DNA from: Nitrospirota bacterium
GTDB taxonomy: Bacteria > Nitrospirota > Thermodesulfovibrionia > Thermodesulfovibrionales > UBA1546
Length of the DNA stretch: 58,978 nucleotides
Reading direction: 5' to 3'
Assembly: GCA_026387575.1 (NCBI GenBank)
Contig: JAPLLK010000064.1
Coordinates: forward strand, 1-58,978
Shown: positions 9,991-58,978 of the stretch, piece by piece
Position numbering within the stretch: position 1 is the stretch's first letter
Layout: every line of letters starts with the position of its first letter
Notes under the pieces: generated by a model
Database searches by the model: none
What the model was told of the DNA's origin: nothing
What the model saw: the letters and a program-made list of their open reading frames with translations, nothing else
Translations under genes and position numbers: made by a program

Positions 9991-10634
9991 ATCTTATGAG
10001 TAATTATATAGGATTCAACTTCTTCTGGCAATAGGTATTTTATACTTTTTCTGCGCTTTATCAGCTTTCTGATGCCGGTTGCTGATATCTCAACAGGCGT
10101 GATATGCATCATTATTATATCCCTGCCGTTCTTTAGCCTTGTTTTATAGGTTTGAAGCTTTGCATTATCAAGCTTTTTAAGGATATTTTTGTTTATCTTC
10201 AGATATGGTGAAGAGGCAAGTCCTGTGAATTTAAAAGCCGGCCTTGAGACCACTATAAAATCTGCAAGGCTGACGAGCTTATCGGGCTGCCACCAGTTAG
10301 GGATGTCAATAAAAGCATCAATGCCGGCTATAAAATAAAGCCTTGCCCCGGGATAAATGCGGCGCAGTTTTTCAAGAGTGTCTACGGAATAAGATTTATC
10401 CTTCTTTTTGTATTCAATATCAGAAACAGCAAAGGAGCGGTTTTTAGATATGCCAAGCCGCACCATCCTGTACCTGTGTTTTGCGTCTGCAAGCTCTGTG
10501 TCCTTGAGCGGAGGATTGCCTGACGGCACAAAGATAATCTTATTGAGTCCGAGTTTTTCCTTCACCTCTTCTGCGGCTGTGAGATGCCCGTAGTGGATTG
10601 GGTTAAAGGTCCCGCCGAATATGCCGAGTTTCAT
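9972..10634 (-). CDS. nadD: Nicotinate-nucleotide adenylyltransferase
   Basis: GIFGGTFNPIHYGH and ISATGIR. Confidence 0.96.
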   Translation of the reverse strand: MKLGIFGGTFNPIHYGHLTAAEEVKEKLGLNKIIFVPSGNPPLKDTELADAKHRYRMVRLGISKNRSFAVSDIEYKKKDKSYSVDTLEKLRRIYPGARLYFIAGIDAFIDIPNWWQPDKLVSLADFIVVSRPAFKFTGLASSPYLKINKNILKKLDNAKLQTYKTRLKNGRDIIMMHITPVEISATGIRKLIKRRKSIKYLLPEEVESYIITHKIYKVKS

Positions 10635-50277: not shown

Positions 50278-51291
50278 TCAGCATTTAAATACTTCAGCAT
50301 AAAACTTCTCATCGATTGCAAATCTGATTTTAAGAGCAACAAGATTATCCGGCAAACGCAGGCCTCTGAGCCTTATCACGTCTTTTTCTGTTGTCACAAT
50401 CCAGCCTGCATTGTTTGCTTTTGCTTCTTTAATTACCTCTTCGATGTCCTCTTTTTTATAGGAATAATGGTCGCTGTATTTTTTACTGCCCTTGAGGCTG
50501 CATCCTGCTGACAAGACAGTCTTTTTGAACGACTCAGGGCTGCCTATACCGCAGAACGCAAAAAAGTTTTTACCCTTTGCCCATTCAAACGGCATTGTTT
50601 CCCCTGACAATTTCACAAACCCTGCCGGCTTATGCATAGAAAGGAATACCGGAGTCTTTGAGTTATAGCTCTTTATTTCTCCGGCTATATCTTCAATTAT
50701 TGCCTGACGAATATTGTCTGTTTTTGTCAGGACTACAATATCTGCCCTTTCTATTTCCTTAAGAGGCTCTCTGAGCAATCCGACAGGCAGAAGCCGTCTG
50801 TTGTCAAAAGAATTCTCAGCGTCTATTAACAGAATGTTCTTATCCCTGAAAAGCTGCCAGTGCTGGAAGCCGTCGTCAAGGATAAAAAGTGTTTTAGCTG
50901 ACAGCTGGGAGCTAATAGCTGTCAGCTCTTCTATCGCAAACATTCCACCTTTGTATCTGTCAGCACATTTTACAATAGGGACATCCTTTAATATCTCGGA
51001 CATTAATAGAGGCTCATCTCCGTATAGCTGATGGCTGATGGCTGATGGCTGATAGCTGACAAATACCGGCCCTTTTGCCTTTCCCTTGTATCCTCTTGTA
51101 AGTATTATTGGATAAAAACCTCTTTTCTTCGCCTCATCAGCTATTGCAATTACAGCAGGCGTCTTTCCTGTGCCTCCTGCAGTAATATTGCCTATGCTGA
51201 TAACCTTATGTGGAAGCCGTTTTTGATGTTTTAGGGAATAATGCTTTTTGGCTGAATAGCCGAGATAGTATATGAATTCAAAAAGTGTCAT
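50278..51291 (-). CDS. lpxK: Tetraacyldisaccharide 4'-kinase
   Basis: ISIGNITAGGTGKTP, LTRGY, GDEP, LDDGFQH, LPVGLLREP and TTEKD. Confidence 0.96.
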   Translation of the reverse strand: MTLFEFIYYLGYSAKKHYSLKHQKRLPHKVISIGNITAGGTGKTPAVIAIADEAKKRGFYPIILTRGYKGKAKGPVFVSYQPSAISHQLYGDEPLLMSEILKDVPIVKCADRYKGGMFAIEELTAISSQLSAKTLFILDDGFQHWQLFRDKNILLIDAENSFDNRRLLPVGLLREPLKEIERADIVVLTKTDNIRQAIIEDIAGEIKSYNSKTPVFLSMHKPAGFVKLSGETMPFEWAKGKNFFAFCGIGSPESFKKTVLSAGCSLKGSKKYSDHYSYKKEDIEEVIKEAKANNAGWIVTTEKDVIRLRGLRLPDNLVALKIRFAIDEKFYAEVFKC

Positions 51292-51411
51292 GATATAATC
51301 TTCTTTCTCCCCTCTGCCCACCCCATGTGAAGGTTGATGTCGTAGTGGAATGAAATACAGTCATTCTCCAGTAAAGCACGGCTTATTTTGTCAATAATGA
51401 ATTGAAATTTA

Positions 51412-53988
51412 TTAATCCTTACCCTTTTGTTCCAATTTATCCTCAAGGTCGCTTCCGAAAACTTCCTTTATCAGCCTTCCATCTCTCAAATATTGAAAAA
51501 ACCCTGTATAACTATTGGGACTTAAAAAGTGGAAAATATATTTCTGCTTAATTCCTGATTCCTCAAGCTCTTTATTTAGGTCTGAGAAGTGCTGCCTTGT
51601 CCATCTTAACTTTGCTTTGTTTTCATCAGAGTCATCACCATCTGACTTTACTTCCACAACTACAATATAGTCTATTCCGCCATGATGAATTTTGATGAAA
51701 AAATCAGGATTAAATTGTTGGTTTTTTTGAGGATGTTCACCTTTTCGCCATGAATACTCAACGCTGTAAAATCCTTGATCCCTTGACTTTATCCATGAAT
51801 CAATCTTTTCTGCATTGTCTTTCTTGCATAAATGTTCAACAAACCTTCTTTCAGGTTCTGCCCGTGTAAAAATAATACCAAGAGGGGTTTTAAAAAGGTA
51901 TTGGTTAATTTCTTTCTCGGCGCTCTTAGGCAGACTTTCATCGGTTTTTATTTCTTCGAGGATATCTTTTATTTCCTCCAGCAGTTCGTCGTCAAAGCTA
52001 TCTGCATAAAAAACTGTCGCATTATGTCTCAGATTTCCAACAGCCATAGATTCTTTATCCATATTCGCAGTCAAGATAGGCTGGGGTTTGGTGACCTTTC
52101 TTACATTTACTATGGTCTTTCCCTTTTTTCTTAAAAGCGTTCCGAATGTCTGAAGTATTCTCTGCCTGTTTTTCTCTACAAGCCGATCACCTTTAATTCC
52201 CCTCCTATCCATAGATGTCCTGATGATTTTTCTTATCTCATCCTTAGGAGGCAATTCATTTTTAGTATATTCGCCTTCAGGCAGTTTCAGAACACGCCCC
52301 TCCCACTCCCTCGTTTTAAATTCCTCGTAAATCTTATTTACGATTTCATCAACGCTGTAAGTGTTGTATTCTATTAATGTATTTTTTGCATAAACCTCGC
52401 CTGCAAGACTGGTATATTCTGTGCCTTTTTCATCATCCTCTACCTGCGATATAAGCTCAATAAATCCTTTTGTGTAGTCAAAGACCTCTGTATCACGGCT
52501 TGCCTCTTTCTCCTGAGGCTCTTTGTCATAGTTGATGTTGCAAAGGGCAAAATTGTATTTTGCCCTATCGCCTTCCTTTAGGACAGAGCTTGTTAATTTC
52601 ATCTCTATTTCTAGGATTTCATCTACAAGTCCTTTTATATTCCGGCTCCATGCGTCATGATTGAATACCTTTACTCTTGGCTGCGGCGTCTGGTATTCAG
52701 GCGGCACTCTAAGACCTCTTCCTAAGACCTGTGCTATTAATAACTTTGAATTAAATGCCCTATCTTTCCACGGAACGATCTGGAAAACATTATTTACATC
52801 CCACCCCTCAGTAAGCATAGACACAGATACAATCCACTCTGTTGAATCGTCTTTGTCATCAACATTTTTGAGCCTTGCCGCATTTGCCCTATGCTCCTGC
52901 GCAGAGGTAACTATCAAAACCTTCTTCTCAACTTCCCCCCTTGGCAGAGATTCTTTTTTTGATAAAAATCCCATGAGGTCTTCAGTCAATCTTTTTGCAT
53001 TTGTGATATCGTTTGTAATAAGGATAGTTAAGGGCTTTATTTTTCTGTATTTATTTTGATTCTCAATATGATTATCATAAATTTTCTGAAATTTTTCAGG
53101 GTCACCGATGCTTTCATCCTTGCTTACATAATCCACCATCTTGACTACTTTGTCATCTACTGCCTGTCTCAAAGAATATCTGTAAATGACATCGTTAAAA
53201 TACTCGTCTTCAATATATGCCGTTCCCGTGAAACCGACCATATACATAAAGTTGTAATCCGCACTCAAAAGGAAATCTTTCCATTTCTTAATATCCTGAC
53301 TTTCTCTGTCTCTGCCTGAAACTTTATTGTAGACATGGTGAACCTCATCACTTAAAACCAAGACCTTTGCCCCATTGCTCATAAGGCTGTCCTTTATGGA
53401 TGAACCTGTTTTTTCATAAACTGCATGGATATTTTCAACGCAAATATCACCGTCTTTTATAGTGCTGTTTGCGTCTATAATACGGGGATTCTTATATGCT
53501 GCATCTTTAGGGATTGTCTGTTTTAATCTGCTATCTCCGCTTAATGAAATAAACTTCTCCATAAGTCCCTTCTCTATAGTCAGGGATGGGCATAGCACAA
53601 GAACCTTGTCCACAAGTCCTAATCCGAGCATTATCTGGGCAATGCCATAAATAACATAGCTCTTGCCCGTACCTGTGGCTAAGTCAATGGTTGCAGAAAG
53701 CTTGTTGGACAGTTGTAAATGATGAAAATACTCGTTTATATCTCTATATCTGGTGTGCAGTTCGGGATTTTTATCCCAGTTTTCCCTGACCAGATCCTCA
53801 ATTGATTTATACCTGCCTGATGCGAGATAAATAATAACATTCTCTATAGCTTCACGCTGATACTGCCTGTCTCCACAGAGGACATCAAGGAATCTATCCC
53901 ATCTTGAAAGATCAAGCCTTGCGGGATCATAAGATTTGCTGACCTCTAAAACAAGGTCTTTTGTGTTATAAGTCTTTATCTCAATCAT
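51412..53988 (-). CDS. Type III restriction helicase/endonuclease (Res)
   Basis: LATGTGKS, DEVHH, TGT, LTEGWD, QVLGRGLR and FNPDF...VEVKS. Confidence 0.9.
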   Translation of the reverse strand: MIEIKTYNTKDLVLEVSKSYDPARLDLSRWDRFLDVLCGDRQYQREAIENVIIYLASGRYKSIEDLVRENWDKNPELHTRYRDINEYFHHLQLSNKLSATIDLATGTGKSYVIYGIAQIMLGLGLVDKVLVLCPSLTIEKGLMEKFISLSGDSRLKQTIPKDAAYKNPRIIDANSTIKDGDICVENIHAVYEKTGSSIKDSLMSNGAKVLVLSDEVHHVYNKVSGRDRESQDIKKWKDFLLSADYNFMYMVGFTGTAYIEDEYFNDVIYRYSLRQAVDDKVVKMVDYVSKDESIGDPEKFQKIYDNHIENQNKYRKIKPLTILITNDITNAKRLTEDLMGFLSKKESLPRGEVEKKVLIVTSAQEHRANAARLKNVDDKDDSTEWIVSVSMLTEGWDVNNVFQIVPWKDRAFNSKLLIAQVLGRGLRVPPEYQTPQPRVKVFNHDAWSRNIKGLVDEILEIEMKLTSSVLKEGDRAKYNFALCNINYDKEPQEKEASRDTEVFDYTKGFIELISQVEDDEKGTEYTSLAGEVYAKNTLIEYNTYSVDEIVNKIYEEFKTREWEGRVLKLPEGEYTKNELPPKDEIRKIIRTSMDRRGIKGDRLVEKNRQRILQTFGTLLRKKGKTIVNVRKVTKPQPILTANMDKESMAVGNLRHNATVFYADSFDDELLEEIKDILEEIKTDESLPKSAEKEINQYLFKTPLGIIFTRAEPERRFVEHLCKKDNAEKIDSWIKSRDQGFYSVEYSWRKGEHPQKNQQFNPDFFIKIHHGGIDYIVVVEVKSDGDDSDENKAKLRWTRQHFSDLNKELEESGIKQKYIFHFLSPNSYTGFFQYLRDGRLIKEVFGSDLEDKLEQKGKD

Positions 53989-53990
53989 GG

Positions 53991-56102
53991 CTATTTCTTG
54001 ACTGATAAAACTTCTTTAAATTCATTTCCATAAATATCCACATAAACGACCATTATCTTATCCCCGCAATCCTCTTTATTCAAAGGGATAACGAGCCTAT
54101 CAAGGCGTTTCAAGTCTTCTTTAATCTCGTCTTCATTTTGTTCATCTTCTTTTTCGGTCTTCTTTTTCTTTGGCAGCAAGTCCTCTGCAAAATAAAACTC
54201 ATCCATAACAAATTCCCTGTCGTTGTAATCATTATCAATCAGAGCCATTGCAAGAGACTCAAAGTTTTTCAGTTCACTGCCTGTTTCTTCTTCAAGATAG
54301 TTGGAAAGAAATTTGGTGATATGGATTTCCATATTTCCACTTTTTTTTACAATTTTTGACTCTACATCCGGCTGTCTTATAAAGTGAAATCCTATGGCAT
54401 CATCAAGGTCGTTGACATTTTTTTTACTTTGAGGCTGTCTAAATTTCTTAAACTGCACCTTATGAAGCTCTTTTATTATTTGATATGGCACTTTCAGGAA
54501 ATAGTATTTCGTTTTGTCTATTTCGTGATAATCGCTTATAAAATCCACATAATTTGCAGGGGCAATGATATAGAGCCTTCCTCCGACCCTTTTGCCGATG
54601 TTTGAATGCAAGTCCTCAAGATATTCCTCATCCACCGATGCCTTTTTAAACTCCCAGTAAGGATAGATAACCGCATAGTATCCATCCTTCTTTTGCCCGT
54701 CTATCTTTATGCCTCCGATTTTTTTGTTAACAGGCTCTACTTCAAAAAGGTTCATCACAAACTTGATGTAATCATCGTTTTTAAGTTTAAAAACCTTCTG
54801 CAAATCGTAAAGCCCAGTGTTAACGGTTACAAAACTTCTTGCTTTTTTGCCGTATTTCTTTTTGGGTTTTTCCAAATCCTTGCTGTTCTGAATGGTTAAG
54901 ATTCTTTTCTGCATCGTATAAAAAGACAGCTTGCCGATATCGCACGCAATCCACCGCCTGCCGAGCTTTTCAGCTACTGCAGGGGTAGTTCCACTCCCAG
55001 CAAAAAAATCAAGGACGAGGTCGTTCGGCCTGGAAGCTGATAATATTACTCTTTCAAGTAACTCTTCGGGGTTTTCTGTAGGATAGCGAGCACTCCGCAC
55101 ATAACCTTTCACATCTGTCCAGTTAGAATCTACAGGTGTTTCTTCGGTTTGTAAATATTCTGGCACTCCTTTGTGTTTATTACTTGCTAAATCAGTCCAT
55201 GAATCGTTGTTTTCAATTCGAATACGCCCATCTTCAGCCATCTTGTTGATTTTTTCTTGAGAGAATGTCCAATGCCGTCCTCTTGGGGGTAACAAAACCT
55301 TTTCGAGAATTGTTCTCTCCGGTGGATTTCGCAATCCTGGAGATGACATTGGTAACCATTGAGGCTCAGCCTTTTGACCACAAAATGAACAAATTCTACT
55401 TCTAAATATTTCGTTAAACAACACATTCCCAGAATTTGAATAAAAGAAAATACAGTCTGTGGCATGATTAAATTGGTTTAAGTCCCTTAATTGTCTTTTG
55501 AAACGATTAATTACTATTTCATTCCTAAAATTACATCGGTCGAAAATTTCATCCATCGCCATTTTGATATAGTACCCAAAATGATAATCAAGACGAATAA
55601 AAATGCTTCCATCATCAGCTAAAATTTCTCTGGCAAGAATTAGTCTTCTTCTCAAAAATTCTACAAAATCAGCACCCTTTCTCTTTGCACTATATGCACT
55701 CCGCCCATTACCACCGTCATATTCATCGCCAGTCCCGAACGGCGGATCAATATAAATCAACTTGACCTTGCCTTTTACCTTATCCTTTATCAAAGGGTCT
55801 TTATTTTCACAGACTGTCTTTAAAAATTGCAGATTGTCACCAAAGACAATCATATTGCGCCAGTCTTTATCGCCTGCCGGATACTCCTCTCCGTTGAAGA
55901 CCTTTTCAACCTGCAAAGGCACAGGGAAAACACCGTCTTCATTTGCGAGGATGTCTTCTTTCCGCATCTTGCCGGCATATACAAGCTCATATTCCTTTTG
56001 CTTTGTAGGGAAGAGTTTGTACTTATAATCAGCCGGAATAGGCTCGCCTTTTTGGAGAGTCTTAACTAAAAACTGAATGTCGTATTCGTTCAGCTTGTTC
56101 AT
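53991..56102 (-). CDS. Type III DNA methyltransferase (Mod)
   Basis: GDNL, YIDPPF, YPTENP and DFFAGSGTT. Confidence 0.92.
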   Translation of the reverse strand: MNKLNEYDIQFLVKTLQKGEPIPADYKYKLFPTKQKEYELVYAGKMRKEDILANEDGVFPVPLQVEKVFNGEEYPAGDKDWRNMIVFGDNLQFLKTVCENKDPLIKDKVKGKVKLIYIDPPFGTGDEYDGGNGRSAYSAKRKGADFVEFLRRRLILAREILADDGSIFIRLDYHFGYYIKMAMDEIFDRCNFRNEIVINRFKRQLRDLNQFNHATDCIFFYSNSGNVLFNEIFRSRICSFCGQKAEPQWLPMSSPGLRNPPERTILEKVLLPPRGRHWTFSQEKINKMAEDGRIRIENNDSWTDLASNKHKGVPEYLQTEETPVDSNWTDVKGYVRSARYPTENPEELLERVILSASRPNDLVLDFFAGSGTTPAVAEKLGRRWIACDIGKLSFYTMQKRILTIQNSKDLEKPKKKYGKKARSFVTVNTGLYDLQKVFKLKNDDYIKFVMNLFEVEPVNKKIGGIKIDGQKKDGYYAVIYPYWEFKKASVDEEYLEDLHSNIGKRVGGRLYIIAPANYVDFISDYHEIDKTKYYFLKVPYQIIKELHKVQFKKFRQPQSKKNVNDLDDAIGFHFIRQPDVESKIVKKSGNMEIHITKFLSNYLEEETGSELKNFESLAMALIDNDYNDREFVMDEFYFAEDLLPKKKKTEKEDEQNEDEIKEDLKRLDRLVIPLNKEDCGDKIMVVYVDIYGNEFKEVLSVKK

Positions 56103-56106
56103 ATAT

Positions 56107-56553
56107 TTACCTGTCTACTTGCTTTGCTGCCTTTTCAATCCAATCCCCCAGATTTTCTCTTCCATTGTCATTATTCCATAAATATTTCCCATACCCGGCA
56201 GGGAGCGGATTTGCTCCTGTATCATCTGTATTTCCATCTTGATCTTTTATCTTGCTAATATCGATACCAATGAGTCCTTTTCCAAGCTCGATACTTCTCT
56301 TTATTTCGTATTTTACCCAAGGTCGAGTCGATGTTTCCTTACCAATGAGAACAACTGTTACAGATGTCCCATTCAGTTGTTTTTCAATCCAATTTTTTAC
56401 TGCTTGCGTTCCCTGTTTTTTAATTGCTTCCCAATCTGCTTTGTCATAAAAAGGATTTTTATCATAACCAGAAATAACATTACAATTTCTTACTTGACCA
56501 ACACGCCAAGCATCACGTGAGTAATGAAAACTAAAAAATACCTTTCTTGCCAT
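56107..56553 (-). CDS. TIR-domain protein, ThsB/MTH538-like (DUF1863)
   Basis: RKVFFSFHY..D.WR..QVRN, TSVTVVLIG and RPWVKYEI (catalytic Glu intact). Confidence 0.9.
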   Translation of the reverse strand: MARKVFFSFHYSRDAWRVGQVRNCNVISGYDKNPFYDKADWEAIKKQGTQAVKNWIEKQLNGTSVTVVLIGKETSTRPWVKYEIKRSIELGKGLIGIDISKIKDQDGNTDDTGANPLPAGYGKYLWNNDNGRENLGDWIEKAAKQVDR

Positions 56554-56554
56554 T

Positions 56555-56986
56555 TTAACCTCCTGGTATGGTTAATAATATTAAAGCGTAAATTATAACC
56601 AAAATTGCTATAGAACAGTAAAACCAGCCTAATGTGATAGAGAACATGATTCTGAACTTTGATTGAACTTTATCTTTAAACCTATAGGCATTCATGTTAA
56701 AGAGATATTCATCTGTTTTAAGCCTGTTTTCAACAACCCATTTATATAATTCTCTATACATCTTTTCTTGCCAGAGAAAATAAGCATCCAGAAACCAGAA
56801 AACCAAAAGGGGAATGAAGGCAATCAAAACCTGATATTTGTTTCCTTTCAAAAGGAGAGTGGCTACCACCAATGTTATTGCCCAACCCTTTATCAGAAAG
56901 GAGTTTAGAGCCATTCGTTTGATAATATCTTGAATTATCTTTAATTCCTCAACAAAAAATTTTTCAATTTCTATTTTTTCAGACAT
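56555..56986 (-). CDS. Small multi-TM protein, putative effector of the adjacent TIR protein
   Basis: ELKIIQDIIKRMALNSFLIKGWAITL...FWFLDAYFLWQEKMYRELY; about 3 hydrophobic segments; GGAGGTG RBS. Confidence 0.75.
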   Translation of the reverse strand: MSEKIEIEKFFVEELKIIQDIIKRMALNSFLIKGWAITLVVATLLLKGNKYQVLIAFIPLLVFWFLDAYFLWQEKMYRELYKWVVENRLKTDEYLFNMNAYRFKDKVQSKFRIMFSITLGWFYCSIAILVIIYALILLTIPGG

Positions 56987-57659
56987 TGTTATCACCTCCC
57001 TTTAAAATGCCTTCTGCCTGAAAGCTGAAATATCCATTTTTACCGATAATTATGTGATCAATAACCTCAATCCCAACTATTTTACCAACTTCCATTAACC
57101 TTTGGGTTATAGCGATATCTTCTTTGCTCGGTTCAACATTTCCAGAAGGATGATTATGAACAAAAATAATCCCTGCTGCTCTGTCACTTATTGCATCAGC
57201 AAATACCTCTCTCGGATGGACAATGCTATGATTTAATGTGCCTATAAAAACAGTTCTTTTCTGTATCAGATTGGAAGCGCCATCTAAGGTAAGACTCAGA
57301 AAATACTCTTGTCTCTTATCCTTCAATTCTTCGGTTAATCTTAATACATCATCAACATTCTTAATCTTTATTCCGTCTTTTATCAGAAATCTCTTTGAAA
57401 ACTCAATGGCTGCCATAATCTGACATGCCTTAGCCAGTCCAATACCTTCAATATCTTTCAATTTCTCTAAGCTGATATTATCAAAATCATCTTGGGCCAA
57501 CCTTAAAATATCCTTTGCCACTTCAAAAACATCCTTGCCCTTTATGCCGCTGCCAAGTAAAACCGCCAGTAGCTCAAGATTAGAAAGAGCCTTTGCGCCC
57601 TTTTGTTCCACCTTTTCACGAGGCCTATCAAATTGAGGTATGGCCTTAATTTTCTTCAT
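56979..57659 (-). CDS. radC: RadC-family JAB/MPN protein
   Basis: RPREK...ALSNLELLAVLLGSG, HhH (GIGLAKA), HPREVF, HNHPSG...PSKED and DHIII. Confidence 0.93.
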   Translation of the reverse strand: MKKIKAIPQFDRPREKVEQKGAKALSNLELLAVLLGSGIKGKDVFEVAKDILRLAQDDFDNISLEKLKDIEGIGLAKACQIMAAIEFSKRFLIKDGIKIKNVDDVLRLTEELKDKRQEYFLSLTLDGASNLIQKRTVFIGTLNHSIVHPREVFADAISDRAAGIIFVHNHPSGNVEPSKEDIAITQRLMEVGKIVGIEVIDHIIIGKNGYFSFQAEGILKGGDNNV

Positions 57660-57665
57660 AGTTAT

Positions 57666-57755
57666 CTATAATAAGTCAACCCGTTCGGCCACATGCAGGT
57701 TTTCCTGCAATTCATGGAGCAGTTTTTGTTCTGCATTATCAAAAATACGCGGCAT
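57666..57755 (-). pseudogene. 29-codon N-terminal stub of a probable PLD-domain/SNF2 helicase defence protein
   Basis: ATG overlaps the dinD stop (TAATG): MPRIFDNAEQKLLHELQENLHVAERVDLL*. Confidence 0.55.
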
Positions 57756-58630
57756 TATTCCTCTTCCGGTTTGCCGATTAATCCCTTTGCATCTTTTTCT
57801 TCCAGTTCCAGTTTAGGAGCAGCGCTTTTTACACGCTTTTCGACCTGCTTGATATGTTCAGCAGGGGGAAGCTGTTCAGGCAGTGTGCCGCCTATACGTT
57901 TAATGGCGTCTCTAACTTCTTTACCGACGTTTTCGTGTGTCCTGATTGCTACTTGCTGATCTTTTACCTTATCTTTTGCTAATTTGTCCCGCGTCTGTGT
58001 CATACGAAACTGGTTTGCCGCTAACTCTGTAGTATCCATGCGGTCCATGAGATTTTCTTTTTCAGGTATTCTTTTCTGTTTCTTTATCGCATCCCTGCCC
58101 AGTCCGCCATACATGCCTTTATATCCGGCATCATGGAAAACCCCGAACATCCTGTCATGCACTCCTGCATCACGCGCCGCACCTGATAATGCCTTAAATT
58201 CTTCGGCTGTCTGCTTGCGAAGTTCCAAACGCTCTATATCAGCGGCAATTGCAGTAGAGATTTCCTGCCGCCGTGCCTGAACAGCAAAATACTTCTGAGC
58301 ATTGGCAATTTCAGGCTTACGCGGATCACCATTCTGAGCAATTAAATAACATGCAAAGCGGGACAGGTTATAATCAGGAACTTCACGCACGCTTCCTGAT
58401 CCAAGGTCAACCATTTTGCCGGCGCCGGCAAAATGGTTTTCAACGGTATTTCCTGATTGTTTACAGGAGGTTAGCGCCCTTTGAATTGCATCTTCAAAGC
58501 GCCGCCATTGCGTATATCCTAAAAGAGGCTGAATTTCCCGCGCGCTCCAATATTCCGCGCCATATTCATTTGTTTTCTTCAGGTCTTCAAAAGACTTGCT
58601 TCCCATTGGCACTAAATTTTTATCCGACAT
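57755..58630 (-). CDS. dinD: DNA damage-inducible protein D family (Bro-N-like)
   Basis: EYWSARE...LGY..WRRF, LSRFACYLIAQNGDPRKPEIANAQKYFA and ELAANQFRMTQT. Confidence 0.88.
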   Translation of the reverse strand: MSDKNLVPMGSKSFEDLKKTNEYGAEYWSAREIQPLLGYTQWRRFEDAIQRALTSCKQSGNTVENHFAGAGKMVDLGSGSVREVPDYNLSRFACYLIAQNGDPRKPEIANAQKYFAVQARRQEISTAIAADIERLELRKQTAEEFKALSGAARDAGVHDRMFGVFHDAGYKGMYGGLGRDAIKKQKRIPEKENLMDRMDTTELAANQFRMTQTRDKLAKDKVKDQQVAIRTHENVGKEVRDAIKRIGGTLPEQLPPAEHIKQVEKRVKSAAPKLELEEKDAKGLIGKPEEE

Positions 58631-58667
58631 GCCCCCTCCTGAAATAAGACGCCAATAATATTATAAG

Positions 58668-58978
58668 TTATCCAGCCTCATTTCTTAAAAACTTTTCTAT
58701 CTCCTTCATCGCCCTTTCAACTGCGCCTGCCTTTTCATTGTACAAATCTTTTGCCTTGTTGCCCATAGATTTCCTTTTCTCGGGAGACTGAAGCAGTTCT
58801 TTTAGTTTTTCGCGGAGAGATGAACTTTCAGTTTCTATCGCAGCGCCCCTTTCGTAGAACTCTTTCGCAAAAGGGAAATTCTCCATGTGCGGCCCGCATA
58901 TTATCGGCTTTGCCCAGAAGGCAGGCTCAAGCAGGTTCTGCCCGCCGTGCTCTATGAAACTTCCGCCTATCACAGCAA
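58668..58978 (-). CDS. waaA: Kdo transferase, C-terminal part (truncated by window edge)
   Basis: GGSFIEHGGQNLLEPA...GPHMENF. Confidence 0.93.
   Translation of the reverse strand, partial: AVIGGSFIEHGGQNLLEPAFWAKPIICGPHMENFPFAKEFYERGAAIETESSSLREKLKELLQSPEKRKSMGNKAKDLYNEKAGAVERAMKEIEKFLRNEAG

Follow-up and report, generated by a model that had tools for sequence, protein, structure and literature searches.

A RadC-linked type III restriction-modification cassette with a cargo slot between waaA and lpxK in a Nitrospirota bacterium

We consider it likely that the genes inserted between waaA and lpxK in a 58,978-nucleotide stretch of Nitrospirota DNA (the window) form a layered defence hot spot, made up of a type III restriction-modification (R-M) cassette, an accessory RadC and a slot holding a Thoeris-like module. 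The locus is composed of families of known kinds, and a specific coupling of its TIR protein to the R-M enzyme is not supported by our data. Its features, as window coordinates and strand, are the following:

58668-58976, minus: waaA (Kdo transferase), 3' end, flanking the insertion site on the left (NF004388 6.7e-20, profile positions 323-423)
57755-58630, minus: dinD, DNA damage-inducible protein D with a Bro-N domain (NF008573 1.5e-108; PDLC04919 PDC-S13 2e-111)
57666-57755, minus: 29-codon ORF that shares 1 nt with the dinD stop
56979-57659, minus: radC, first cassette gene, HhH-type N-domain plus JAB/JAMM (PF04002 9e-44; PF20582 2.9e-22)
56555-56986, minus: TM, 143-aa membrane protein (PADLOC PDC-M50A, PDLC04684 1.5e-50)
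56107-56553, minus: ThsB-like TIR, 148 aa (PF08937 ThsB_TIR 4.7e-27; PADLOC ThsB1 PDLC00431 3.3e-61; PDC-M50B PDLC04688 1.4e-54)
53991-56102, minus: mod, beta-class N6/N4 DNA methyltransferase of the type III kind (PF01555 9.4e-41; PADLOC MTase_III 4.8e-67)
55010-55600, no strand assigned: mod, variable central region, spanning roughly residues 168-364 and separating motif IV from motif I (DNA homology break)
51412-53988, minus: res, SF2 helicase with a C-terminal PD-(D/E)xK nuclease, last cassette gene (PF04851 2.1e-17; PADLOC REase_III 6.5e-14)
51322-51411, minus: res-lpxK spacer, containing the right insertion boundary
50278-51321, minus: lpxK, right flank (PF02606 2.8e-77; TIGR00682)

The insertion site and dinD

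Six co-oriented minus-strand genes, their ORF positions read from the window sequence, lie between waaA and lpxK. All six were found where the original prediction had placed them, and the profile matches uphold its assignments of DinD, RadC, TIR, Mod, Res, LpxK and WaaA. The block is an insertion that splits two lipid A/Kdo genes, as had been proposed, since waaA abuts lpxK directly in four (G001, G010, G014, G018) of the ten relatives' lpxK loci compared, two of the ten being cut by contig ends; the waaA end is 89-93% identical to that of same-genus relatives. In agreement with the prediction, no match to an integrase or transposase family was seen for any of the six proteins. At the right boundary, flank homology begins at 51360 in the same-genus genome G003 and at 51282-51291 in cassette-free relatives, and position 51352 is the contig start in two public runs (records 1 and 25). 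The radC and TM genes overlap by 8 nt if TM starts at its ATG, or by 17 nt if it starts at the GTG at 56995, which is also open; the gaps TM/TIR, TIR/mod and mod/res are 1, 4 and 2 nt, so that the predicted junction sizes are reproduced with the ATG start. A scan for consensus promoters and terminators did no better than on shuffled sequences, and the operon structure is thus read from gene spacing alone; a search for RNA runs containing the locus returned none. This spacing suggests that the five genes from radC to res are probably co-transcribed.

The dinD gene matches its equivalog model well (362.5 bits against a cut-off of 242 for NF008573) and also matches PDC-S13, a single-gene candidate in PADLOC. 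Copies 92-95% identical to it stand alone between waaA and lpxK in the same-genus genomes G009 and G008, and DNA homology to G009 ends at the dinD stop, 57755, where the GC content also changes, from about 46% in dinD to 33-40% in the genes that follow. A tblastn search with DinD found no match in 160 loci carrying TM, and none of the other copies of the cassette described below contains dinD. The same site in G003 holds a divergent RadC-Mod-Res without TM or TIR, with the same flanks, the left one retaining a 62-nt remnant of the dinD 3' end. Judged from the sequence, dinD is an independent, older resident of the site, separate from the cassette, and the role of accessory once proposed for it does not hold, the gene being missing in all other cassette copies and standing alone in two relatives. 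The 29-codon ORF next to it, which the original prediction had overlooked, is probably what is left of the 5' part of an older, truncated gene: it is not shared by G009, G008 or G003, and a metagenome cassette (L085) carries directly upstream of radC a 28-aa stretch that is 50% identical to it.

The cassette and its cargo slot

The order radC-TM-TIR-mod-res constitutes a separate cassette of about 6.25 kb, with the start codon of radC and the stop codon of res as its ends, whose DNA homology to other copies starts at 57660-57671 and stops at 51409-51431 (the latter in comparison with L083, L087 and L110). The search for recurrence of the gene order, one of the checks suggested for this locus, recovered it in 8-9 metagenome contigs with flanks that differ between copies. 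The order is complete in L083, L087 and L110 and cut by contig ends in L085, L086, L108, L113 and L134, while L084 shows the end of RadC, TM, a different ThsB_TIR and Mod. Of the six-gene combination first envisaged, five genes thus recur together and are co-inherited, and dinD is not among them.

A scan with a Res profile found the Res family in 11 of the 401 genomes of the phylum. Between RadC and Mod-Res, two genomes carry a PIN-domain gene and a 68-aa ORF (G298, G346), a third carries an AAA ATPase and an S8 subtilase protease (G294), and three have no cargo (G003, G061, G287). The backbones with different cargo remain close to that of the window (RadC 85-93%, Res 79-86% identity) and form in the Res tree one clade of 7, with support of 99/100, in which the cargo types are interleaved. 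Decay products are also seen, namely a RadC-Res fusion ORF in G130 and a split Mod in G061. The radC-mod junction acts as a cargo slot.

The Mod-Res backbone appears to be an R-M system of the type III kind. It has the mod-res order of EcoP15I-like systems, here with a 2-nt gap. Motif IV of Mod (DPPF, residues 119-122) precedes motif I (FAGSG, 367-371), on either side of a variable middle that we presume to be the target-recognition domain: mod DNA homology to L083, L087 and L110 breaks there, both sides aligning at 74-87%, and across cassettes Mod is 60-72% identical overall as against 78-86% for Res. Res has SF2 helicase motifs (GTGKS 106-110, DEVH 214-217, QVLGRGLR 420-427) and a C-terminal PD-(D/E)xK nuclease (PDFF 761-764, VVEVK 777-781), all of which are invariant in 6 relatives, and is matched weakly by the PADLOC REase_III models (6.5e-14, residues 183-435). 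The coupled upstream radC gene and the insertion slot between radC and mod set the backbone apart from known type III systems; three plasmid homologues lack an annotated RadC.

RadC function has been disputed for decades. The cassette protein, 82-93% identical across 12 other cassette copies, matches PDB 2qlc (6.1e-27) and carries the JAMM motif H-x-H-x7-S-x2-D at residues 168-181. It had been taken for an HNH nuclease, but the letters in question belong to this JAMM motif, and such an assignment has to be withdrawn. A second radC in the genome, on contig C1 beside riboflavin and purine genes, is 40% identical to the island-borne copy. RadC-family JAB proteins have been described on DNA that moves horizontally, in a conflict context (PMC12458937; PMC5512222), and the RadC/ArdB modules of mobile elements are comparable as carriers of such a protein. 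In contrast to these modules, the RadC found here is full length, with a UPF0758 N-domain, and opens an R-M operon, whereas RadC and ArdB together make an anti-restriction module.

The TM-TIR pair and its relation to Thoeris

The TM and TIR genes, 1 nt apart, match both members of a PADLOC candidate pair, PDC-M50A and PDC-M50B (1.5e-50 and 1.4e-54), and are a recurrent pair, in support of the original pairing of a TIR with a membrane effector. The same models, however, overturn the claim that the system is undescribed, as TM-TIR and DinD were both already PADLOC candidates, PDC-M50 and PDC-S13 (Payne et al., bioRxiv 10.1101/2024.01.29.577857). A TIR gene adjoins TM in 94 of the 138 informative loci, i.e. 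those with at least 450 nt downstream of TM. Counted within 1.5 kb downstream, which gives a lower bound, this is the case among genome loci for 41 of 76 and among metagenome loci for 53 of 62. The metagenome loci are the 80 most similar of at least 412 and include some duplicates of genome loci (L094=L004, L143=L023, L159=L026), so that the counts cannot be treated as independent. In 53 of 97 loci exactly 1 nt separates the two genes, and two or more TIRs occur at 10 loci. The remaining 44 informative loci (35 genome, 9 metagenome) have no match to the TIR profile, and at some of these the neighbours of TM look like housekeeping genes; TM may thus also work alone or with other partners.

The TIR protein, the only ThsB_TIR match in the genome, is related to PDB 8wcf (9.9e-28), ThsB1 in 9b7d (7.5e-24) and the Bacillus cereus ThsB in 6lhy (7.7e-24). 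Across 81 aligned TM-linked TIRs, residue E83 (in WVKYE) reaches a conservation of 90% or more, and by its position it is the putative catalytic glutamate of a predicted sensor and signal synthase. TM, the predicted effector, has three hydrophobic segments, centred at 37-39, 58-64 and 121-135, with a loop (72-112) that contains 10 K+R against 6 D+E; its AF2 model consists of three long helices (pLDDT 75). It belongs to no Pfam or NCBIfam family and has no Macro or other known signal-binding domain, its fold has no PDB match at E<=0.001, and its 30 nearest ESM Atlas clusters share no common Pfam family. Its own family is nevertheless large, with 3973 representatives (50% identity) at E<=0.001 in bacteria and archaea, and PDC-M50A matches all of 74 diverse relatives. 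The proposed tie of TM to a TIR-made signal is read from gene adjacency.

The closest parallels are to be found among Thoeris systems. Thoeris effectors include small multi-TM proteins activated by TIR-made cADPR isomers, as validated by Yirmiya et al., who list 29 putative Thoeris types (bioRxiv 10.64898/2025.12.03.692087). The same authors describe for type V (ThsB with ThsF/DUF2270) a ThsF with three membrane-spanning helices, predicted positive pockets and a proposed membrane breach when bound to 3'cADPR; as in the window, a ThsB-type TIR stands beside a small three-helix effector. Unlike ThsF, TM does not fall in PF10028 by Pfam model search: 0 of 20 members matched at E<=10, only 2 of 74 TM relatives gave weak matches (best E 0.012, below the cut-off), and the model found nothing in the window's genome (G000) and nothing over the cut-off in 301 genomes of the phylum. 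Type II (ThsB with a TM-Macro effector, signalling by His-ADPR) likewise joins a TIR to a membrane-pore effector, from which the 143-aa TM differs in lacking a Macro or other known signal-binding domain. The Thoeris features present are thus a ThsB-type TIR, its conserved glutamate, an adjacent effector and sometimes several TIRs; a recognised signal-binding domain (SLOG, Macro or similar) is absent from the effector. Payne et al. mined Hma, BREX, DISARM and type I R-M for guilt-by-embedding and identified PDC-M50 by the logic that applies here, genes nested inside other defence operons (bioRxiv 10.1101/2024.01.29.577857). PDC-M50 is a computational candidate whose name did not appear in a full-text literature search, and its host operon here is a RadC-linked type III R-M.

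A layered reading, its rivals and what the locus may mean

We propose the following course of events. The waaA-lpxK junction is a recurrent insertion site in the genus, at which dinD (PDC-S13) arrived first and independently, the mobile cassette then settling downstream of it. Mod would methylate DNA and confer specificity, and Res would serve as the helicase-nuclease, both preceded by the translationally coupled RadC, with its JAB/JAMM and HhH domains, and the slot is filled in the window by PDC-M50, a Thoeris-like two-gene abortive-infection module. Unmodified incoming DNA would be cut by Mod-Res, and infection by a phage that escapes would be sensed by the ThsB-like TIR, which would convert NAD+ into an ADP-ribose-derived signal. 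The small three-segment TM protein would take up this signal on its positively charged cytoplasmic helices, then oligomerise or open, breach the membrane and abort the infection. The two layers, R-M and TM-TIR, would not need to touch each other.

An alternative is that TM-TIR and the other cargos are wired to the R-M enzyme as guards that are set off when Mod-Res or RadC is inhibited by an anti-restriction factor of a phage, with RadC possibly as an adaptor. The analogue is PrrC in the type I system EcoprrI, likewise an abortive-infection gene nested in an R-M operon. In that system PrrC, an anticodon nuclease, is kept inactive by the R-M enzyme. TM-TIR is indeed frequently nested in R-M operons of type I or type III: it stands between radC and mod in the window, behind res in L131, and between hsdM and hsdS in L088 and L112, and it occurs with Mod-type methyltransferases in other arrangements (L131, L064, L010/L114, L151, L162, L102). 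The 109 ORFs directly upstream of TM include 11 N6_Mtase, 8 RadC, 3 Methylase_S and 3 GmrSD_C, and the 51 after the TIR include 10 N6_N4_Mtase, 4 Methylase_S and 2 GmrSD_N. The junctions are tight enough for translational coupling, which together with the recurrence beside Mod-type methyltransferases leaves room for a functional link to R-M. Yet TM-TIR is found with three or more unrelated kinds of R-M as well as beside non-R-M genes, which makes a specific protein-protein sensor unlikely. Cargos as unrelated as a PIN pair or an AAA ATPase with an S8 protease occupy the same slot on near-identical backbones; this interchangeability, and the lack of any sequence relation to PrrC, distinguish the cassette from EcoprrI, and the former argues against a dedicated interaction of the PrrC-guard type. 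Moreover, validated Thoeris TIRs sense phage directly, and embedding without functional dependence is reported as a general pattern (Payne et al., bioRxiv 10.1101/2024.01.29.577857). We therefore regard such guarding as improbable. Of the original idea of a TIR/TM backup to a type III enzyme, the layering survives in the nested architecture; the specific coupling does not, as the cargo is swapped and TM-TIR also occurs in type I systems.

We give similarly little credence to RadC-Mod-Res being a distinct and hitherto undescribed three-gene type III R-M system, in which RadC is a working partner, possibly in DNA-end or nucleotide processing or in the control of establishment, and the radC-mod junction serves specifically for the docking of interchangeable cargos, which are expressed with the enzyme and possibly triggered by its failure. 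If this were true, the cassette would be a modular platform for "restriction plus suicide" that is spreading among anaerobic bacteria.

Still less likely is that the main role of the cargos is to keep the cassette in place, through the killing of cells from which it has been lost, with defence against phage not their primary task. The PIN-domain protein followed by the 68-aa ORF does look like a toxin-antitoxin pair, and the cassette moves without a recombinase of its own and leaves decay products (G130, G061). However, R-M systems are already self-stabilising, no antitoxin-like partner of TM is evident, and the TIR partner ranges from 41% to 100% identity within otherwise conserved cassettes, a variation of the kind shown by sensors under phage selection. 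In 11 Thoeris types, moreover, experiments have shown ThsB-type TIRs with an adjacent effector to act against phage. Least credible, and rejected here, is a single six-gene machine including DinD, to which co-orientation and the 29-codon ORF bridging the dinD stop toward radC might point, given the solitary dinD in G009 and G008, its absence from the 160 TM loci, the break of both GC and homology at its stop and the 62-nt remnant upstream of G003's own RadC-Mod-Res.

With the layered reading, what was only a vague "defence island" becomes a natural experiment of defined layout, with one R-M backbone and three cargos at one junction, together with empty and decayed forms, in which embedded abortive-infection modules can be tested for acting independently of, or in concert with, the host R-M. 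Guilt-by-embedding, applied before to type I R-M, BREX and DISARM, is extended to type III R-M, and a family of small membrane proteins that is both very large and very conserved emerges as likely TIR-signal effectors. For RadC the locus offers a reproducible genetic setting for assays of its function, and the cassette as a whole shows how microbes stack and swap their antiviral defences.

Gene content of the waaA-lpxK interval

The interval that separates the waaA 3' end (58668-58976) from lpxK (50278-51321) contains six minus-strand genes in tandem, together with one short open reading frame (ORF) that the original prediction did not mention.

Features of the interval and their family matches
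57755-58630, minus strand: dinD (NF008573, 1.5e-108; PADLOC PDC-S13, 2e-111)
57666-57755, in the minus-strand block: 29-codon ORF sharing one base with the dinD stop
56979-57659, minus strand: radC (PF04002 and PF20582)
56555-56986, minus strand: TM, a 143-aa membrane protein (PADLOC PDC-M50A, 1.5e-50)
56107-56553, minus strand: TIR protein, 148 aa (ThsB_TIR PF08937, 4.7e-27; PADLOC ThsB1, 3.3e-61, and PDC-M50B, 1.4e-54)
53991-56102, minus strand: mod (N6_N4_Mtase; PADLOC MTase_III, 4.8e-67)
51412-53988, minus strand: res (ResIII; weak PADLOC REase_III match, 6.5e-14)

The family scans agree with the gene names of the original prediction (DinD, RadC, TIR, Mod and Res), and the tight junctions that it described are correct, with radC overlapping the TM gene by 8 nt (17 nt when counted from an upstream GTG) and later gaps of 1, 4 and 2 nt. 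The GC content is about 46% across dinD vs 33-40% across radC to res. Scans for promoters (22 promoter-like sites vs 22.6 expected) and terminators (9 terminator-like sites vs 6.3 expected) were uninformative, and no RNA run containing the locus was found among the public runs listed.

The same genome possesses a second radC (contig C1, L002 1186-1890; 234 aa, 40% identical), located between riboflavin- and purine-synthesis genes and likely to be the housekeeping copy. We therefore rejected a housekeeping role for the radC of the window, which travels with the cassette. RadC-family JAB domains have been proposed to act in nucleic acid or nucleotide processing (passages of PMC5512222), and are also carried by the RadC/ArdB modules of mobile elements (passages of PMC12458937). 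Our literature search, judged from the titles and abstracts of the papers listed and from passages of these two, returned no description of a RadC-Mod-Res operon.

Recurrence of the cassette and its insertion site

Recurrence of the gene order, on which the prediction of a coupled module depended, was found in metagenome contigs with differing flanks. A scan of such contigs with the TM family gave at least 412 relatives, of which the 80 best were retained, some of them duplicating genome loci; among these 80, the RadC-TM-TIR-Mod-Res order is complete in L083, L087 and L110, and is interrupted by contig ends in L085, L086, L108, L113 and L134. In a further locus, L084, the end of RadC and TM are followed by a ThsB_TIR protein of 137 aa that differs from that of the window, and by Mod. 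Identity of the copies to the window is 82-91% for RadC, 76-92% for TM, 78-86% for Res and 60-72% for Mod, and ranges from 41% to 100% for the TIR protein. DNA homology extends from the radC start (57660-57671) to the res stop (51409-51431), and is interrupted at 55010-55600, in the central part of mod that separates motif IV from motif I. The flanks are peptidases, a deacetylase and an AlbA_2 protein in L087, and a DUF5615 protein and malate dehydrogenase in L110. More distantly, L131 (1-6607) carries RadC-Mod-Res, 32-48% identical to the proteins of the window, then about 260 nt, then TM and two ThsB_TIR genes, that is, the same partners in another order. Near-identical cassette DNA is also present in sequencing runs of four studies besides the possible source, and contigs from two of them bridge the dinD/radC junction.

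The search for terminal repeats of the cassette yielded only short two-copy matches and no att-like repeats. Near the cassette ends, but within res and radC, there is a 20-nt direct repeat with 85% identity (51422-51441 and 57598-57617), probably due to chance.

We also compared the lpxK region of 10 relatives, two of whose loci end at contig ends. In four of them (G001, G010, G014 and G018), waaA directly adjoins lpxK; in two others (G009 and G008), dinD stands alone between these genes, 92-95% identical to the dinD of the window. At the same site, G003, a member of the same genus, carries part of an AlbA_2/HTH gene, followed by 62 nt left over from the 3' end of dinD and by a RadC-Mod-Res cassette devoid of TM and TIR, whose proteins are 31%, 37% and 44% identical to those of the window and whose genes overlap by 4 nt; G013 has an 801-aa ORF with hydrophobic stretches. 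The homology between the window and G009 stops exactly at the dinD stop, and on the right side homology starts at 51360 vs G003 and at 51282-51291 vs the cassette-free relatives. These site contents and homology boundaries argue that the waaA-lpxK junction is a recurrent insertion site, of which dinD is an independent, older resident. DinD was also without any tblastn match in all 160 TM loci. The inclusion of dinD in a six-gene defence module, as originally proposed, is thus rejected, given its absence from the TM loci, its solitary occurrence in G009 and G008, and the homology break at its stop.

Several smaller observations concern the history of such sites. The Schlafen AlbA_2/HTH gene lies just upstream of RadC, full length in L087 (3654-5045) and truncated in G003 (L166 3826-4431), and so occurs in two otherwise different cassette contexts. 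The 29-codon ORF has a 50% identical counterpart, a 28-aa peptide just upstream of radC in L085 (84-200), whose frame continues into radC. The ORF is probably what is left of an older gene, either carried along by the cassette or struck by it, and might derive from the 5' part of a larger gene for a nuclease or helicase. Stumps of larger genes also seem to be present as short ORFs in spacers, upstream of the cassette copies of L087 (5054-5177) and L083 (235-485) and between dinD and lpxK in G009 (L164 10090-10170), which suggests repeated gain and loss at these sites. Over 50300-58978 of the window, the summed contig depth in two public runs (X7 and X10) is 10- to 30-fold higher over lpxK, dinD and waaA than over radC to res, a hint that most related genomes in these samples are without the cassette, although such depth cannot rank the parts of a stretch, cannot properly be read that way and is not counted as evidence here. 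Contigs of these runs begin at 51352, and in one X10 contig 51284 is linked to 58687 through 31 letters of other sequence, a weak junction with only 24 letters on its shorter side.

An exchangeable slot between radC and mod

When 401 genomes of the phylum were searched with a Res profile, 11 proved to contain the family. In two of these (G298 and G346), RadC and Mod-Res are separated by a PIN-domain gene (PF01850, 2.2e-07) and a 68-aa ORF, and in one (G294) by an AAA ATPase and an 805-aa S8 subtilase, on backbones that are 85-92% (RadC) and 79-84% (Res) identical to the window. RadC-Mod-Res is contiguous, the slot being empty, in G003, G061 and G287; RadC is missing within the fetched stretch in G302 and G185, and the G281 locus begins at a contig end. 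The seven close cassettes group in a single clade of the Res tree (support 99/100), where the cargo types are interleaved, and deeper in the tree RadC-linked and RadC-less members alternate. Different cargos on near-identical backbones, together with this interleaving, point to the radC-mod junction as a place of exchange for unrelated toxin-type modules on one backbone.

Two members appear altered. G130 (L185, G130:C4, 981-2441, minus strand) has a single 486-aa ORF fusing full RadC (93% identical to the window) to the last third of Res (residues ~592-858, 86% identical), apparently the outcome of a deletion within the cassette, and a DUF3800 gene comes after it. In G061 (L180, G061:C5, 5898-8045), two ORFs, of 116 aa and 570 aa, take the place of an intact mod, owing perhaps to a frameshift or a phase-variable switch, or because the gene is a pseudogene. 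A plasmid search gave 35 matching records, in three of which the match spans at least 80% of Res; these three have Mod-Res and no annotated RadC, in PLSDB gene tables that are incomplete.

The TM-TIR pair and known defence systems

TM belongs to a very large family that is also highly conserved: 1574 proteins match at E<=0.001 among length-matched candidates, the family has 3973 representatives at 50% identity, and its members span bacteria and archaea. No Pfam family matched TM, and PDC-M50A matches 74/74 diverse members. TM itself contains three hydrophobic segments plus a loop of net positive charge, and is modelled by AF2 as three long helices (pLDDT 75); Foldseek of this model against the PDB gave nothing at E<=0.001, only generic helical bundles, and the nearest ESM Atlas clusters are unnamed, an 8xMP cluster at 0.85 being a lead only. 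The TIR protein, the sole ThsB_TIR match in its genome, is akin to solved ThsB structures (8wcf, 9.9e-28; 9b7d, 7.5e-24; 6lhy, 7.7e-24) and keeps the conserved Glu83.

A window-type TIR follows TM in 41/76 genome loci and in 53/62 metagenome loci with enough downstream sequence, some of which duplicate genome loci; these are minimum counts, since the profile missed divergent partners of the ThsB_TIR and TIR_2 kinds. The gap between the two genes is exactly 1 nt in 53/97 loci, and 10 loci have two or more TIRs. Their neighbourhoods are rich in restriction-modification (R-M) genes: the 109 ORFs upstream of TM (112 found, 3 duplicates dropped) include 11 N6_Mtase, 8 RadC, 3 Methylase_S and 3 GmrSD_C, the 51 ORFs after TIR include 10 N6_N4_Mtase, 6 more TIR_2, 4 Methylase_S, 2 Macro and 2 GmrSD_N, and the order is hsdM-TM-TIR-hsdS in L088 and L112. 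The family may have other partners. In three Beggiatoaceae-type metagenome-assembled genomes (L058, L061 and L062), distant relatives of TM (46-49% identical, at ~10001-10400) are followed by a pseudopilin-like gene, with no nearby TIR, and in L063 and L082 an ORF of ~960 aa stops 8 nt before TM.

The PADLOC PDC systems derive from Payne et al. (bioRxiv 10.1101/2024.01.29.577857), passages of which describe how loci of Hma, BREX, DISARM and type I R-M were mined for nested genes, which became the defence candidates. The candidate-selection section makes no mention of type III R-M, the kind to which the host operon of the window belongs. The name PDC-M50 was not found in our literature search. 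According to passages of Yirmiya et al. (bioRxiv 10.64898/2025.12.03.692087), there are 29 putative Thoeris types, types V-XI were validated, and the type V effector is a three-helix membrane protein, DUF2270, activated by 3'cADPR. The TM of the window differs in that it falls outside DUF2270 as judged by HMM, and would be at most a remote relative.

The locus is best read as an R-M cassette of the type III kind that has RadC as an accessory and a slot for cargo; in the window this slot holds a Thoeris-like abortive-infection pair, and an unrelated DinD gene lies beside the cassette. By analogy with its family relations and with the validated Thoeris types, the TIR protein would sense infection and produce an NAD-derived signal, upon which TM would breach the membrane. 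The layering of defences in the original prediction is thereby supported, but not a dedicated link of TIR and TM to this R-M enzyme. One might still argue from the repeated nesting of TM-TIR in R-M operons that the pair guards this very enzyme, which we consider improbable. As to the claim of an undescribed system, the locus is partly catalogued already, as PDC-M50 and PDC-S13; what is new here is the RadC-linked type III cassette with its swappable slot.
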